DNA of 64,000 nucleotides, from NCBI RefSeq assembly GCF_041916735.1, contig NZ_JAYRYY010000017.1; one strand, written 5' to 3'. Origin of the DNA: Zoogloea sp. (GTDB lineage: Bacteria > Pseudomonadota > Gammaproteobacteria > Burkholderiales > Rhodocyclaceae). The translations under genes and the position numbers were made by a program. Positions 26,305-31,094 of the stretch are shown piece after piece. Positions within the stretch are counted from its first letter, which is position 1; each line of letters begins with the position of its first letter. Below the pieces are notes generated by a model. It was not told where the DNA came from. It searched no databases and saw nothing but the letters and a program-made list of their open reading frames with translations.

Positions 26305-27069
26305 ATGGAATTCCTGACCGACCCGCAATTGCTGATCGCATTTCTGACCCTCACCGCCCTCGAGCTGGTGCTGGGGATCGACAACGTGATCTTCATTTCC
26401 ATCCTGGTGGACAAGCTCCCCCCCGAAAAGCGCGCCTTCGCCCGCCGCCTCGGCCTCTTCCTGGCCATGTTCATGCGCATTGGCCTGCTGATGATCCTGT
26501 CCTGGCTGGCCGGCCTCACCGAGCCCATGGTCACGGTACTCGGCCGCGGCTTCTCCGGGCGCGACCTGATCCTGCTGGCCGGCGGTCTCTTCCTCGTCTG
26601 GAAGAGCACCCAGGAAGTCCATCAGCTGATGGAAGGCGAGGAAGGCGAAGCCTCCAGCGCGGTCAAGGCCACCTTCAGCGCGGTGATCCTCCAGATCATT
26701 CTCATCGACATCGTCTTCTCGCTGGATTCGATCATCACCGCCATCGGCATGGTCAATAACCTTCAGGTGATGATCGCCGCGGTAGTTGCCTCGGTGGGCC
26801 TGATGATGGTGGCCTCGGCGCCCATCGGCGAGTTCGTCTCCCGCCACCCCACCGTCAAGATGCTGGCCCTGTCCTTCCTGCTGGTCATCGGCGTGGTCCT
26901 CATCGCCGACGCCTTCGGACACCATGTGCCCAAGGGCTACATCTACTCGGCGATGGCCTTCTCGGTCATGGTGGAAATGCTCAACCTGCGCATGCGCAGC
27001 CGGCAGGCTGCCAAGGTCGAGCCGGTGCAACTCCACGAACCCTATGTGCGTGAAGGCAACAAGCAGTGA
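26305..27069 (+). CDS. TerC family integral membrane protein
   Basis: LELVLGIDNVIFISIL, GRDLILL.GGLFL.WK, DIVFSLDSIITAIG, HP.VKMLAL.FL, KGYIY.AM.FS. Confidence 0.92.
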   Translation: MEFLTDPQLLIAFLTLTALELVLGIDNVIFISILVDKLPPEKRAFARRLGLFLAMFMRIGLLMILSWLAGLTEPMVTVLGRGFSGRDLILLAGGLFLVWKSTQEVHQLMEGEEGEASSAVKATFSAVILQIILIDIVFSLDSIITAIGMVNNLQVMIAAVVASVGLMMVASAPIGEFVSRHPTVKMLALSFLLVIGVVLIADAFGHHVPKGYIYSAMAFSVMVEMLNLRMRSRQAAKVEPVQLHEPYVREGNKQ

Positions 27070-28049
27070 CGGCGCCCTTCGGGCCGCTCACTCCTGATTT
27101 CATCCTCGGCGCGGTGGAGGCCTCCGGCCTCCGCTGCGATGGCCGCCTGCTGACCCTCAACAGCTATGAAAACCGGGTCTATCAGGTCGGCATCGAGGAC
27201 GCCGTCGCCCCCTTGATCGCCAAGTTCTACCGCCCGGGGCGGTGGAGCGACGCAGCGATTCTCGAGGAACACGCCTTCCTGGCCGAGCTGGCCGAAGCTG
27301 AGATCCCGGCCGTGGCGGCCCTTGAGATCGGCGGGCACACCCTGCACCACCACGAGGGCTTCCGCATTGCCCTCTTTCCCCGGCGGGGCGGGCGGGCGCC
27401 CGAACTGGACGATCCTGAAGTGCTGGGCTGGCTCGGGCGCTTTCTTGGCCGCATCCACGCCGTGGGCGGCACCCGGCCCTTCATCCACCGCCCCACGCTG
27501 GATATCCGCAGCTTCGGGGAAGCCCCGCGGGATACCTTGCTGGCCTCTCCCTTCCTGCCGTCCGAACTGCGCGACACCTGGTTGTCGGTGGTGGAGCAGG
27601 CCCTCGACGGGGTGCGCCGCTGTTTCGAGCACGCCGGCCCCCTGCCACAGATCCGTCTGCATGGCGACGTGCACGGGGGGAACGTGCTGTGGACCGACGC
27701 CGGCCCCCATTTCGTGGATTTCGACGATGCCCGCAACGGCCCTGCCGTTCAGGATCTTTGGATGCTCCTCTCCGGTGATGCCCAGGCCATGGCCCGGCAG
27801 CTCGACAGCGTGCTGGAAGGCTATGAGCAGTTCGCCAGCTTCGATCCACGCAGCCTTCATCTGGTCGAAGCCCTGCGTACCCTGCGCCTGATCCACTACG
27901 CCGGATGGATCGCCACCCGCTGGGACGATCCGGCCTTTCCGGCCGCCTTCAGCTGGTTCGATTCGCCGCGCTACTGGCAGGACATGATCCTGTCGCTGCG
28001 TGAACAGGTGGCCTTGATGGATGAATCGGCGCTGACGCGGCTGTTCTGA
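27066..28049 (+). CDS. srkA: Stress response Ser/Thr kinase SrkA (YihE/RdoA)
   Basis: LNSYENRVY, AKFYRP.RWS...ILEEH.F, RLHGD.H.GN, DFDD...GPAVQDLWMLL, LRTLRLIHY.GW.A.RW.DPAFP. Confidence 0.93.
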   Translation: MTAPFGPLTPDFILGAVEASGLRCDGRLLTLNSYENRVYQVGIEDAVAPLIAKFYRPGRWSDAAILEEHAFLAELAEAEIPAVAALEIGGHTLHHHEGFRIALFPRRGGRAPELDDPEVLGWLGRFLGRIHAVGGTRPFIHRPTLDIRSFGEAPRDTLLASPFLPSELRDTWLSVVEQALDGVRRCFEHAGPLPQIRLHGDVHGGNVLWTDAGPHFVDFDDARNGPAVQDLWMLLSGDAQAMARQLDSVLEGYEQFASFDPRSLHLVEALRTLRLIHYAGWIATRWDDPAFPAAFSWFDSPRYWQDMILSLREQVALMDESALTRLF

Positions 28050-28079: not shown

Positions 28080-28589
28080 TCAGGCCGTGGCTTCAGGCGC
28101 CTGGAAATCCCCGCTGCGGAAAGCTTCCAGCAGGCGACGCATGCGCCCTGCATCCTCCTCCGTGAAGCCCTGCTTGAAGTCCGTCAGCACCAGCCTGGCG
28201 CGAGTGGGCCAGTTGCCCGGCGCGTCGTCCACCGCCAGCCACTGGGCGCCCGGCGCCCGGCGTTCCAGCCACTGCCTGGCTTCGCGCTCGCGCAGGCCGT
28301 AAAGCTCATTGGGTGTGCGGGGAAAAAGGGTGGGCGAGCAGTCGATCACCCTCGCCCGGACGTCCTCGGCAAAGCGCGCCGACAGCTTCTGCAGGGAAAA
28401 CAGGGTGCGCCAGTCGGAAGAAATGATCACCCGCGTCTCCGGGTATTCGCGCAGCACCGACTCCAGCAGCGGCAGGCAGCGAAAATCCTCCGCCTCGCCC
28501 CACGGATGGGTCACCCCGTCGAAATCGAGGAAGACGTAAACCGGGGCAAGGACCGCCGGGGGGGTGATTTTGGCCATTTTTTGATGCAT
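28080..28589 (-). CDS. HAD-superfamily protein (Swiss-army-knife RNA repair-like HAD_SAK type); start uncertain
   Basis: VFLDFDGVTHP, VIISSDWR, RE.E...WL, W.AVDD. Confidence 0.75.
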   Translation of the reverse strand: MHQKMAKITPPAVLAPVYVFLDFDGVTHPWGEAEDFRCLPLLESVLREYPETRVIISSDWRTLFSLQKLSARFAEDVRARVIDCSPTLFPRTPNELYGLREREARQWLERRAPGAQWLAVDDAPGNWPTRARLVLTDFKQGFTEEDAGRMRRLLEAFRSGDFQAPEATA

Positions 28590-28724
28590 CGCAACAAGGG
28601 CACTGAGGAAAGGCGGAAACTTGCCGTTTAAAGAAAACTCACTACGTAACACTCACACTGGACTATTCTAAGGTCAGCAATTGTTGCAGTGCGGTAATTT
28701 TTCTCGATCCAACGGAGCCCAGCC

Positions 28725-29504
28725 ATGAAACCCATTATCAACCTTGAAGGCAAGGTCGGCCTTATCACCGGCATCGCCAACGAAAAATCCATCTCCACCG
28801 GCGTTGCCGAATCCTGCATCGAAGCCGGTGCAAAGGTCATCATCACCTACCAGAACGAGAAGACCCTGGCTTTTCTGGAGCCCATTGTCACCCGCCTGGG
28901 TGTCGAGGATGTGCTGCTGCTCGACGTGACCAAGCCCGAGACCATGGACGAAGTCTTTGCCAAGATCGACGCCAAATACGGCAAGCTCGACTTCGCCATC
29001 CACTCCATGGCCTTCGCCAAGCGCGACGACCTGCACGGCCGCGTGGTGGATACCTCCGCCGACGGCTTCGCCCTGGCCATGGACGTCTCCACCCATTCCT
29101 TCGTGCGCCTGGCCCGCAAGGCGGAGCCCCTGCTGGACAAGGCCGGTGGCGGTTCCCTGATCACCATGACCTACCTGGGGAGTGAAAAGGTTATCGCCAA
29201 TTATGGCGTAATGGGCCTGTGCAAGGCGGCCCTCGAAGCCGCCACCCGTTACATGGCCTTCGAGCTGGGCCCCAAGAACATCCGCGTCAATGCCATCTCC
29301 CCGGGCCCGCTGATGACCCGTGCCGCTTCCGGCATCGCCGGTTTCGACGGCCTGATGGCGGCTGCGGTGGATCGTTCCCCGCTGCATCGCCTGGTGACGC
29401 CGGAAGACATCGGTGCGCTGACCGCCTTCCTGGTCTCCGACGCCGGCCGCAACATGTCCGGTGGCGTGCATTTTGTGGACGCCGGGTACAACATCATCGC
29501 GTGA
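28725..29504 (+). CDS. fabI: Enoyl-ACP reductase
   Basis: GLITGIANEKSI..G.A, D..IHSMAFA, TYLGSEKV..NY.VMG..KAALE, RVNAISPGP..TRAASGI. Confidence 0.93.
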   Translation: MKPIINLEGKVGLITGIANEKSISTGVAESCIEAGAKVIITYQNEKTLAFLEPIVTRLGVEDVLLLDVTKPETMDEVFAKIDAKYGKLDFAIHSMAFAKRDDLHGRVVDTSADGFALAMDVSTHSFVRLARKAEPLLDKAGGGSLITMTYLGSEKVIANYGVMGLCKAALEAATRYMAFELGPKNIRVNAISPGPLMTRAASGIAGFDGLMAAAVDRSPLHRLVTPEDIGALTAFLVSDAGRNMSGGVHFVDAGYNIIA

Positions 29505-29520
29505 CAGCTGCCGGTCTGCG

Positions 29521-30114
29521 ATGATCGACCACCCTGCCGCCGGAAAGGGGGAGACAACAGCCAGCGTCTCCCTGTCCGATCCGGTACCGGCCCACCCCCT
29601 GCTCGACGGTCTGCCTGAACTCGGGCGGGGGGAGTCCTCCATCGTTCTCGACCCGGGTGACGGTCAGCGGGTCTTCAAGATCGTCAGTTCGCCCGCCGAC
29701 TACTTCTACCTCGCCGCCGACGATCGCCCCAGGGGCGTCCATTTCCCCCGCCTCTTCCACGACCACGGCGTCATCGGCATGGCCAGCTCGGGCTATTCCT
29801 TCCGCCTGCTCGAGATTGAACGCCTGCAACCCGTTTCCGGTGAGGCTGAGCAGCTTGCCCGCCTGCTCTCCCGGGCCTACTGGGAGGGCTGCGAGAAGTG
29901 GGCCAACATGGGGGTCAATCGTGGCCGCCTGGCCCTCTACCACATCAGTCAGGAACCGCCGCCAGGCCTGCCCGACAGCCTGGTTCAGGCCATCGCATCC
30001 CTTTCCGACTTCATCGAGGAGTATCCGGTGCAGCCCGACATCCTCAACCCCCACAACCTCATGATGCGCCCTGACGGCACGCTGGTGCTGTCTGATCCCG
30101 TGTTCCTGCCCTGA
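29521..30114 (+). CDS. Small atypical protein-kinase-like fold protein
   Basis: Gly loop LGRGESSIV, beta3 Lys VFK, catalytic-loop-like DILNPHNLMM, metal-binding LSDPV near the C-terminus. Confidence 0.6.
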   Translation: MIDHPAAGKGETTASVSLSDPVPAHPLLDGLPELGRGESSIVLDPGDGQRVFKIVSSPADYFYLAADDRPRGVHFPRLFHDHGVIGMASSGYSFRLLEIERLQPVSGEAEQLARLLSRAYWEGCEKWANMGVNRGRLALYHISQEPPPGLPDSLVQAIASLSDFIEEYPVQPDILNPHNLMMRPDGTLVLSDPVFLP

Positions 30115-30137: not shown

Positions 30138-30161
30138 AAAAAAGGCGACCCGAAGGTCGCC
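30138..30161 (-). terminator. Rho-independent terminator of the PEP-CTERM gene
   Basis: Minus strand GGCGACC-TTCG-GGTCGCC-TTTTTT: perfect 7-bp stem, UUCG loop, U-tract. Confidence 0.85.
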
Positions 30162-30185: not shown

Positions 30186-31094
30186 TCACACCTTGCGGCG
30201 GCGGGCGCCCAGACATCCCAGCCCGGCCAGCAGCAGGGCCAGCACACCGGGTTCAGGCACCGGCTGAGTACTTGGGTTGTTGGGATCAACTACGGGGTTG
30301 TAGCTGCCGTCAAAGATCCAGCGGCGGATGTCATGGTCCGCGGTAGCCGCACCCGTACCCGAGGTGAAGCCAATGTAGGCGTCGGTGGTGCCGAGCAGAG
30401 CCACCAGGTCAACCGCATAGCTCATCAGGATGGTTGTCGGCCGAGTGCTGTTCAGGGACAGGCGAACTTCAAGCATGTCCGTTGCTCCGTTGTAGTCCAC
30501 CCAAGCATGGAAGATGGCTTGGCTGTCGAGCTGAGCGGGCAGGGTATCTGCCCGCACCACCGAGCACACGTTGCCATTGACGTTGATGCCGGCATGATTG
30601 CCGTTGTTACCGTCACAGGAACCGTTATCCCAGTTGTCGAATTCGACCCCGATGCTGGGGCTCAGGCCTTCGTAACCGATGCCCCCGCCACCGCCGCCAG
30701 CGGTGTTGGAAACGGTCTGCACCGTAAATACAATTCCGTCTGCACCGCCGTTGCCCTGGTTCGTGTATTGGAACTCGAAGTAGCTGCTGAAGGACGCATC
30801 CGAGGCCAGGGAGAAGGGATTGGTCAGGAAGGCGCTGCCCGACTGACCATAGTCGTTGGTCAGACGTAGCACGCGCTGGTCACCGGGATTGGGGCCGACC
30901 ACCCCCTGAGCGCCGGTGTTTATGCTGGCCGTTGCTCCGTTGAGAGTGAAATCGGCCAGACTATTGAAGTTCTGCATGCTGACCACGGCGGCCTGGGCCT
31001 GGGTAGCTCCGGCCAGTGCAGTCGTAACGGCCAGAGCCGACAGGAGGTGGCGAGCACCACCGGTGGGAATCGAACATCCGGACAAAAGGGGCAT
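30186..31094 (-). CDS. L-type (legume) lectin domain protein with PEP-CTERM sorting signal
   Basis: Signal peptide; GADGIVF, IGVEFDNW, NHAGIN, AWVDYNG, YIGFTSGTG; C-terminal VPEPGVLALLLAGLGCLGARRRKV. Confidence 0.9.
   Translation of the reverse strand: MPLLSGCSIPTGGARHLLSALAVTTALAGATQAQAAVVSMQNFNSLADFTLNGATASINTGAQGVVGPNPGDQRVLRLTNDYGQSGSAFLTNPFSLASDASFSSYFEFQYTNQGNGGADGIVFTVQTVSNTAGGGGGGIGYEGLSPSIGVEFDNWDNGSCDGNNGNHAGINVNGNVCSVVRADTLPAQLDSQAIFHAWVDYNGATDMLEVRLSLNSTRPTTILMSYAVDLVALLGTTDAYIGFTSGTGAATADHDIRRWIFDGSYNPVVDPNNPSTQPVPEPGVLALLLAGLGCLGARRRKV

Follow-up and report, generated by a model that had tools for sequence, protein, structure and literature searches.

The protein kinase of bacteriophage T7 (the product of gene 0.7, gp0.7; hereafter T7K) phosphorylates nearly the whole proteome, disarming host defences, and its homologues are almost exclusively phage-borne (PMC13645617, published in 2026). 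From bacteria, that study reports only five sporadic cases, of which four lie in predicted prophages; it gives 32 bacterial hits in its supplementary tables and names the domestication of T7K-type kinases as an open question. The hallmark of T7K is the motif DPV (residues 213-215), which favours a permanently 'in' conformation; the serine right after it (Ser216) is a conserved inhibitory autophosphorylation site (PMC13645617). The gene described here is situated in a stretch of 64,000 nt from a contig of Zoogloea sp. (NZ_JAYRYY010000017.1; this whole stretch is hereafter called the window), directly downstream of a gene for an enoyl-acyl carrier protein (ACP) reductase, FabI2. Judged from sequence comparison, its product is a T7K-type kinase core, but one that belongs to a distinct chromosomal branch. 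The interpretation favoured here, and held to be rather probable, is that of a domesticated, active T7K-like kinase which is restrained by a partner phosphatase and linked to FabI2.

Concerning the family to which this protein belongs, it has no match in Pfam, NCBIfam or PADLOC (PADLOC-DB 2.0), the Pfam copy searched being one without PF27024 (Phage_T7_kinase), in which T7K itself is unmatched; a search of the PDB with the single sequence returned a chance protocadherin match only. Among the PHROGs, however, the protein alone matches phrog_3809 (function unknown) with an E-value of 3.4e-5. A phmmer library search yielded 136 cluster representatives, 90 of which entered the alignment; the full-length representatives are nearly all 175-220 aa long and match to about residue 195. 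Nearly all of these 90 family members (88) match phrog_3809 (best E-value 1.4e-37), and 61 match phrog_15752, the T7 0.7 kinase family (best 4.9e-13). By these comparisons, membership in phrog_3809 over the full length appears solid.

The link to T7K was made via the phage family, because profiles built from the orthologues alone do not reach T7K significantly. A profile of the chromosomal clade (57 sequences) aligns with one of phage-type sequences only (83 sequences) over 174 columns (hhalign 100%, E 2.1e-51), and the hidden Markov model of the phage-type sequences scores the kinase with 143.5 bits. The same phage-type profile aligns with residues 67-216 of T7 gp0.7 (sequence from NC_001604; hhalign 95.8%, E 8.3e-9), as does the profile of all 90 members with its residues 24-191 (96.4%, E 1.5e-9). 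The relation between the kinase and T7K is thus supported as a remote, transitive homology. In this form, the resemblance to T7 gp0.7 that had been noticed in the original prediction was borne out by the family-profile alignments, by the phrog_15752 matches and by phage kinases among the structural matches given below. The D.H.GN.M...I.DPV end motif that had been stated for the T7 0.7 kinase is correct as well; the motifs of T7 gp0.7 follow each other in the order GNGHFSAAY, VIKV, catalytic loop and DPV.

The phage-type relatives that could be placed are situated on contigs of 108-217 kb with arrays of small open reading frames (ORFs) on the same strand, and one of them in a region resembling a mobile element; for one phage-type relative, a faint precomputed match to PF27024 ('Phage_T7_kinase') exists. 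A tblastn search with the kinase against 50,697 isolated phage genomes gave no match, and with a phage-type relative as query it gave partial matches only, in Pseudomonas phages of ~112 kb (nickie, ZY21). In three of the phage-like contigs (L038, L039 and L073), long arrays of unannotated ORFs are found near RNase_T and Band_7 genes.

Within the kinase, the motifs are LGRGESSIV (residues 34-42), VFK (51-53), DILNPHNLMMRPDG (173-186) and LSDPV (190-194), the last of which is followed only by F-L-P and the stop codon. Translation of 29521-30114 thereby confirmed the ORF of ~197 aa that had been described from the letters, with its quoted motifs and its end just past the Mg-binding Asp. Invariant in 33 orthologues are G35, R36, G37, E38, V42, V51, K53, E98, E100, D173, N179, M181, R183, D192 and P193, and V194 is conserved in at least 90% of the orthologues. 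Across the alignment of 90 distant family members, D192 is again invariant, and G37, V51, K53, E98, E100, L102, D173, N179, M181 and R183 are conserved to at least 90%. Since the catalytic and motif residues are invariant to this degree, the motifs are not due to chance.

The kinase ends at residue 197, and the position of Ser216 of T7K is taken by a phenylalanine (Phe195) that is invariant in the chromosomal orthologues. With few exceptions, the 320 close homologues have a length of ~197-198 aa; the chromosomal orthologues comprise ~190-207 aa, and those extracted from genomes all end with DPVF(I/L)(A/G/P). The short form is, on this comparison, the native and conserved length, such that the description of the protein as truncated, in the sense of a lesion, was not borne out. 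Estimates of the ratio of nonsynonymous to synonymous substitution rates (dN/dS) range from 0.05 to 0.25 in 18 pairs (0.00-0.15 in the case of the upstream reductase gene), which shows, at the level of these codon comparisons, that the kinase gene is under purifying selection. A reading as pseudogene or fragment was rejected on account of the conserved length and C-terminus and the low dN/dS.

The structure was predicted with AlphaFold2 (AF2) from the 90-sequence alignment (pLDDT 93.3, pTM 0.85). The model has an N-lobe of five strands with the glycine loop, the VxK lysine and a short helix after beta-3, and a C-lobe of three helices followed by two short strands that carry the catalytic loop and DPV, at which the chain ends; past DPV there is neither an activation segment nor an autoinhibitory serine nor the DNA-binding shut-off domain of T7K. 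A search for a protein kinase-like fold had been proposed as a check on the original prediction. Run with Foldseek, it returned only kinase-like folds from the PDB (PknB, APH(2''), ASK1, BMPR2, JNK; E ~3e-4, probability 0.97-1.0), and from BFVD, as the best match, an uncharacterised protein of the Acinetobacter phage Presley (U5PZN2; E 4.5e-9, TM-score 0.65). The next BFVD matches are annotated protein kinases of phages of Yersinia, Pectobacterium, Klebsiella, Pantoea and Enterobacter, several of them T7-like; to the kinases of T7-like phages, E-values go down to 5e-6, with TM-scores of 0.5-0.55. A profile search of the PDB sequences gave weak matches that coincide precisely with the glycine loop and with the catalytic loop/DFG region of BMPR2 and Mer, and a weak match to NleH chains (E about 1).

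The distribution of the gene was followed in 251 genomes of the Rhodocyclaceae (as the family is delimited in GTDB) from 89 genera, and in 293 genomes from other families of the order. Within the family it is found in 72 genomes of 28 genera, in one copy each apart from one assembly in which the gene is split over two contigs; in the Zoogloea source genome, too, it is single-copy. Only two of the 293 genomes from the rest of the order contain a homologue. By name, the closest homologues come from Zoogloea, followed by Thauera, Azoarcus and Nitrogeniibacter, and every database name seen for the chromosomal clade is 'hypothetical protein'. The GC content of the kinase gene (0.65-0.67) matches that of its flanks, and while the outer flanks vary among Zoogloea, Nitrogeniibacter and Thauera, the core locus is kept.

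In a quick maximum-likelihood tree of 50 chromosomal Rhodocyclaceae sequences, the query, six metagenome representatives, phage-type sequences and T7K, all chromosomal sequences form one clade together with the query and the six metagenome representatives (SH-aLRT 92). This clade has a long stem and is nested among the phage-type sequences; T7K is placed on a long outer branch. As far as gene trees and gene order can do so, the comparison shows a single acquisition by an ancestor of the Rhodocyclaceae, followed by vertical inheritance as a single-copy host gene. A location within a prophage was discarded in view of the synteny, the copy number and the host-like GC. The proposal that a phage gene had been domesticated in a host chromosome, outside any prophage, is supported by the vertical single-copy inheritance, the conserved synteny and the host-like GC, and the comparison of phage and host occurrence suggested for its examination gave the single nested clade just described.

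Two homologues with other surroundings were met in the course of the survey. In a genome of another family of the same GTDB order (G076:C70; locus L060, 3984-8499), a separately acquired T7K-like homologue of 212 aa (31% identical) has a GC content at third codon positions (GC3) of 0.53, as compared to ~0.77 in the flanks, where selA/selB adjoin. It is situated directly downstream, on the same strand, of genes for an McrC-like protein (433 aa, NF007277, 1.2e-31) and an McrB-like protein (823 aa, NF008457, 1.1e-31; PADLOC matches to PD-T4-1 and REase_II), so that the locus looks like a restriction-type island with the kinase as its third gene. The other homologue (G169:C34; locus L061, 4020-4562; E 4e-17) is shorter, likewise has a low GC3, covers profile positions 64-192 only, seems to be without the glycine loop, and may represent a copy that is decaying in other surroundings.

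The gene upstream of the kinase had been called fabI. Its product is indeed an enoyl-ACP reductase (PF13561), although not that of the housekeeping gene: it is a second paralogue of the PRK07533 type (NF005717, 359.9 bits against a cut-off of 337), and the canonical housekeeping FabI (NF005422/PRK06997, 450 bits), which is 42% identical to FabI2, is encoded on another contig. A FabI2 of the triclosan-type with a YX7K motif (PMC6817880) was considered and ruled out, as the sequence reads the canonical YX6K motif. The distance of 16 bp between the fabI stop and the kinase start noted earlier is exact, the stop codon ending at 29504, and a spacer of this length leaves no room for a promoter or a terminator. 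Most orthologous loci have a spacing of 8-27 nt, and a few have one of 63-86 nt. The two genes are presumably transcribed as one unit, with which the spacing of 8-27 nt fits.

All 30 loci of the main subclade that were returned by the family scan have the same arrangement of the HAD_SAK_2 gene (minus strand), fabI2 (plus strand) and the kinase gene (plus strand). Of the 18 loci of the second subclade, 8 have fabI2 upstream in the same orientation as the kinase gene, and one more has it divergent. In three kinase-less genomes (G338, G417 and G528) the surrounding locus is kept while fabI2 and the kinase gene are both gone, leaving the canonical FabI only; fabI2 and the kinase gene thus behave as a dispensable two-gene unit.

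In Dechloromonas denitrificans (CP075187; L072, 3479-8191) and in G306 (L070, 1980-4298), a FabI2-type reductase is clustered with a fusion of MaoC dehydratase and phosphotransacylase (PTA) and with an acetate or butyrate-type kinase. On account of this clustering, FabI2 may act in a CoA-linked short-chain acyl reaction (crotonyl to butyryl) and not in fatty-acid synthesis.

Concerning the phosphatases, two types of neighbours are found. The second kinase subclade, of the Dechloromonas/Azonexus type, is ~47% identical to the first, and its operon reads fabI2, kinase, a 161-aa protein, MaoC-PTA fusion and acetate kinase. The 161-aa protein has an invariant VHCEYGVSRS (HCX5RS) motif and is named 'predicted protein tyrosine phosphatase' by JGI; in the search with its AF2 model (pLDDT 86.9), the top 50 PDB fold matches are all dual-specificity phosphatases (DUSPs) or protein tyrosine phosphatases (PTPs), the best one being DUSP12. 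Of the 251 genomes, 13 encode an orthologue of this CX5R protein; each of the 13 also has the kinase, with the CX5R gene directly downstream of it. As the kinase-less genome G306 has fabI2 directly before maoC-pta, the kinase and phosphatase genes of the Dechloromonas type look as if they had been inserted into the metabolic operon.

In the main subclade, the neighbour is the HAD_SAK_2 protein, an orthologue of which exists in 46 of the 72 kinase-positive genomes; its gene stands beside fabI2 and the kinase gene in nearly all of them, and on different contigs in two fragmented assemblies. Further phosphatase-fold neighbours are found in three additional contexts, one in each: a HAD hydrolase (PF00702, E 2.4e-18) and a weakly matching His_Phos_1 protein downstream of the kinase, as well as an HAD_SAK-like gene upstream of it. 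Among the genes adjacent to the phage relatives there is no CX5R phosphatase and no match to the CX5R profile; a joint capture of a kinase-phosphatase pair from a phage was rejected, since the phage relatives are without such a neighbour.

Taken as a mechanism, the protein would be a kinase-domain-only member of the T7-kinase (gp0.7) superfamily and an active Ser/Thr(/Tyr) protein kinase, made from a common transcript with FabI2, whose potentially promiscuous activity would be restrained by a dedicated phosphatase. In Dechloromonas-type genomes, the restraining enzyme might be the DUSP-fold CX5R protein encoded downstream; for Zoogloea, Thauera and Azoarcus, a less certain candidate is the HAD_SAK_2 enzyme encoded alongside. 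Since DPV favours a permanently 'in' state, Phe195 stands in the place of Ser216 and the DNA-binding domain is absent, regulation would be left to expression, on one transcript with fabI2, and to the partner phosphatase, and kinase and phosphatase could together form a reversible phosphorylation switch. Its likeliest target would be FabI2 or the acyl/short-chain-acid metabolism encoded nearby, FabI2 and the enzymes of nearby genes presumably being the most economical substrates. A fuller history can be put forward only tentatively: a hyper-promiscuous phage kinase might have been captured once by the ancestor of Zoogloea, Thauera, Azoarcus and Dechloromonas, tamed as it lost the targeting domain and became coupled to a dedicated phosphatase (DUSP-fold or HAD), and turned into a reversible switch on FabI2 and acyl/short-chain-acid metabolism.

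Several observations weigh against the favoured interpretation of a tamed T7K-like protein kinase. In direct comparison, the kinase does not match T7K significantly (pairwise BLASTP, E 0.71), nor do the orthologue-only profiles (E 0.046 and 0.028), and the match of the protein alone to phrog_15752 is weak (E 0.33). The PDB fold matches of the kinase model have low TM-scores (0.3-0.4). Compared with T7K and the phage relatives, the catalytic loop contains one additional residue (D-to-N spacing of D+6 instead of D+5), and a leucine stands at the position of the family histidine. Concerning the phosphatases, the Pfam DSPc matches of the CX5R protein lie below the gathering score, and its PDB fold E-values are modest (8.9e-4 for DUSP12, at a TM-score of about 0.4, and weaker for others). 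Three genomes have the HAD_SAK_2 gene but not the kinase, such that the pairing of these two may be coincidental. The link to FabI2 is broken in 13 of the 72 genomes, in which the kinase gene stands beside rbgA/rlmJ, DUF480 or ABC transporter genes. Finally, that the substrate is a protein and not a small molecule or a lipid is an assumption drawn from the analogy with T7K.

This last point leads to a different assignment, according to which the enzyme phosphorylates a metabolite or lipid intermediate of the surrounding pathway (FabI2 and, in Dechloromonas-type genomes, also MaoC-PTA and acetate kinase) and the neighbouring CX5R or HAD enzyme removes the phosphate. The position of the kinase within a metabolic operon (fabI2-kinase-PTP-maoC/pta-ackA) is in agreement with such a role, and the PDB fold matches are split equally between protein kinases and aminoglycoside phosphotransferases (APHs). 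Some DUSP-fold and HAD enzymes use lipids, sugars or nucleotides, and the Kdo and WaaP kinases have the same fold. Nevertheless, this assignment is considered unlikely: the nearest relatives in sequence and in fold are phage kinases and not APH-type enzymes, in 13 genomes the kinase gene has no metabolic partner nearby, and, because the protein ends at DPV, the C-lobe helices that form the substrate pocket of APH-type enzymes are missing from the model. As far as relatives have been characterised (T7K and its homologues), they are protein kinases (PMC13645617).

The original prediction had also named a toxin or an abortive-infection effector, i.e., a growth-arresting protein of an abortive-infection or toxin-antitoxin module which is silenced by the partner phosphatase and freed on infection. 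Hyper-promiscuous as they are, T7K-like kinases would be toxic without restraint (PMC13645617), the kinase-phosphatase pair resembles a toxin-antidote layout, and the separate homologue in the other family directly follows McrB-/McrC-like genes in a low-GC island. These options misfit the distribution, however: defence and toxin-antitoxin genes are mostly patchy and island-borne, whereas the kinase gene is single-copy, vertically inherited, conserved in position across 28 genera and host-like in GC, with housekeeping or metabolic genes as neighbours and a dN/dS far below 1. PADLOC matches neither the kinase nor the HAD_SAK_2 protein nor the CX5R phosphatase, and a defence module is judged decidedly improbable. 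Least probable, with hardly any weight, is a pseudokinase or ATP-binding scaffold that has lost phosphotransfer and serves as a nucleotide-sensing partner of FabI2 or of another protein, since the extra residue of the catalytic loop, the loss of the histidine conserved in the phage relatives, and the absence of an activation segment and of post-DPV helices stand against a glycine loop, K53, D173, N179 and D192 that are invariant over 33 orthologues from many genera, which is unusual for pseudokinases, and against a dedicated phosphatase next door, which argues for real phosphotransfer.

If the tentative history given above is true, this would be the first T7K-like kinase documented as domesticated, and kinase and phosphatase would make up a new kind of Ser/Thr/Tyr signalling pair in bacteria. 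The clade, a bacterial lineage passed on vertically, extends over at least 28 of the genera sampled, comprising wastewater bacteria and degraders of aromatic compounds, and is a candidate example of how a phage kinase is tamed. It also offers a natural experiment, with one kinase beside two unrelated phosphatase types, gained or lost together with a second enoyl reductase. It thus becomes testable how a constitutively 'on' DPV kinase is restrained, whether its specificity changes upon loss of the DNA-binding domain, and whether fatty-acid or short-chain-acid metabolism in the bacteria of this clade is under Ser/Thr/Tyr control.

The features of the locus are compiled in Table 1.

Table 1. Features of the kinase locus, with positions in the window.
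Feature	Position	Strand	Basis
T7K-like minimal kinase, coding sequence (197 aa; incl. stop codon)	29521..30114	+	ORF translation, 320 close homologues, AF2, Foldseek
Glycine-rich ATP loop G35-R-G-E-S-S-I-V42 (GxGxxSxV)	29623..29646	+	Orthologue conservation; aligns to T7 gp0.7 GNGHFSAA
Beta-3 lysine motif V51-F-K53 (VxK)	29671..29679	+	Conservation; aligns to T7 gp0.7 VIK
Catalytic loop D173-I-L-N-P-H-N179-L-M-M-R183	30037..30069	+	Conservation; aligns to T7 gp0.7 DMHSGNIM
D192-P-V194 (DPV) in DFG position	30094..30102	+	Protein end three residues after; conservation
fabI2, second enoyl-ACP reductase paralogue (YX6K type), first gene of presumed operon	28725..29504	+	PF13561 E 1.7e-80; NF005717/PRK07533
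Spacer between fabI2 stop and kinase start, 16 nt	29505..29520	+	Sequence
HAD_SAK_2 phosphatase-fold gene, divergent from fabI2-kinase, possible partner phosphatase	28080..28652	-	PF18143 E 4e-29
Divergent intergenic region, 72 nt, common to HAD_SAK_2 gene and fabI2-kinase	28653..28724		Gene coordinates
GC-rich hairpin GGCGACCCGAAGGTCGCC between convergent genes, 30 nt past kinase stop	30144..30161		Terminator scan

In the divergent region, a consensus scan called no promoter. The hairpin was scored as terminator of the minus-strand gene that converges with the kinase gene, and may also serve the plus strand. This convergent gene (30186-31094) encodes a protein with a legume-lectin domain (PF00139, 7.9e-32) and a PEP-CTERM sorting signal (PF07589, 1.2e-5), and its position is not kept in other genera. 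On the other side of the locus, a plus-strand gene for an SrkA/YihE-type Ser/Thr protein kinase (27066-28049; NF008738, E 2.1e-143; APH in Pfam) converges with the HAD_SAK_2 gene at a distance of 30 nt. Three kinase-less relatives (L066-L068) have these two genes paired as well, whereas Thauera and Nitrogeniibacter do not; the SrkA/YihE-like kinase was rejected as a part of the module, as there is no linkage in other genera.

Compared to the known systems, the organization of the Zoogloea protein is similar to that of T7K in the order of its motifs (GxGxxS loop, VxK, D...N.M catalytic loop, and DPV in place of DFG) and in its compact kinase core. The two differ in that T7K is a phage early gene product of 359 aa, whereas the present kinase is chromosomal, vertically inherited, phosphatase-paired and only 197 aa long, without the N-terminal extension of ~65 residues, the segment with Ser216/Ser218 following DPV, and the C-terminal DNA-binding shut-off domain. 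The core of T7K itself ends soon after DPV, the remaining ~120 residues being the shut-off domain, and jumbophage and bacterial T7K variants likewise lack this C-terminal shut-off/DNA-binding domain (PMC13645617).

With the phage and mobile-element proteins of phrog_3809 (~190-215 aa, e.g., U5PZN2 of Presley), the kinase shares homology over the full length, size, motifs and its best fold match. Those proteins, however, are encoded in arrays of small early genes without a phosphatase neighbour, keep DxHxxN and continue for 10-25 residues past DPV, whereas the chromosomal clade forms a separate long branch with conserved host synteny. The NleH/OspG-type kinases of type III secretion systems have a small kinase domain as well, with much of the canonical C-lobe missing, but they are secreted effectors which retain DFG, and no significant sequence relationship to them exists.

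Pairs of Hanks-type Ser/Thr kinases and phosphatases are found in bacteria, e.g., PknB/PstP, and the mycobacterial enoyl reductase InhA is phosphorylated. In comparison with these pairs, the kinase belongs to a separate, far smaller family without activation loop or sensor domains, and the phosphatase is of the DUSP-fold or HAD type instead of PP2C; common to both would be a kinase encoded together with a phosphatase and, by analogy, an enoyl-ACP reductase as a plausible target.

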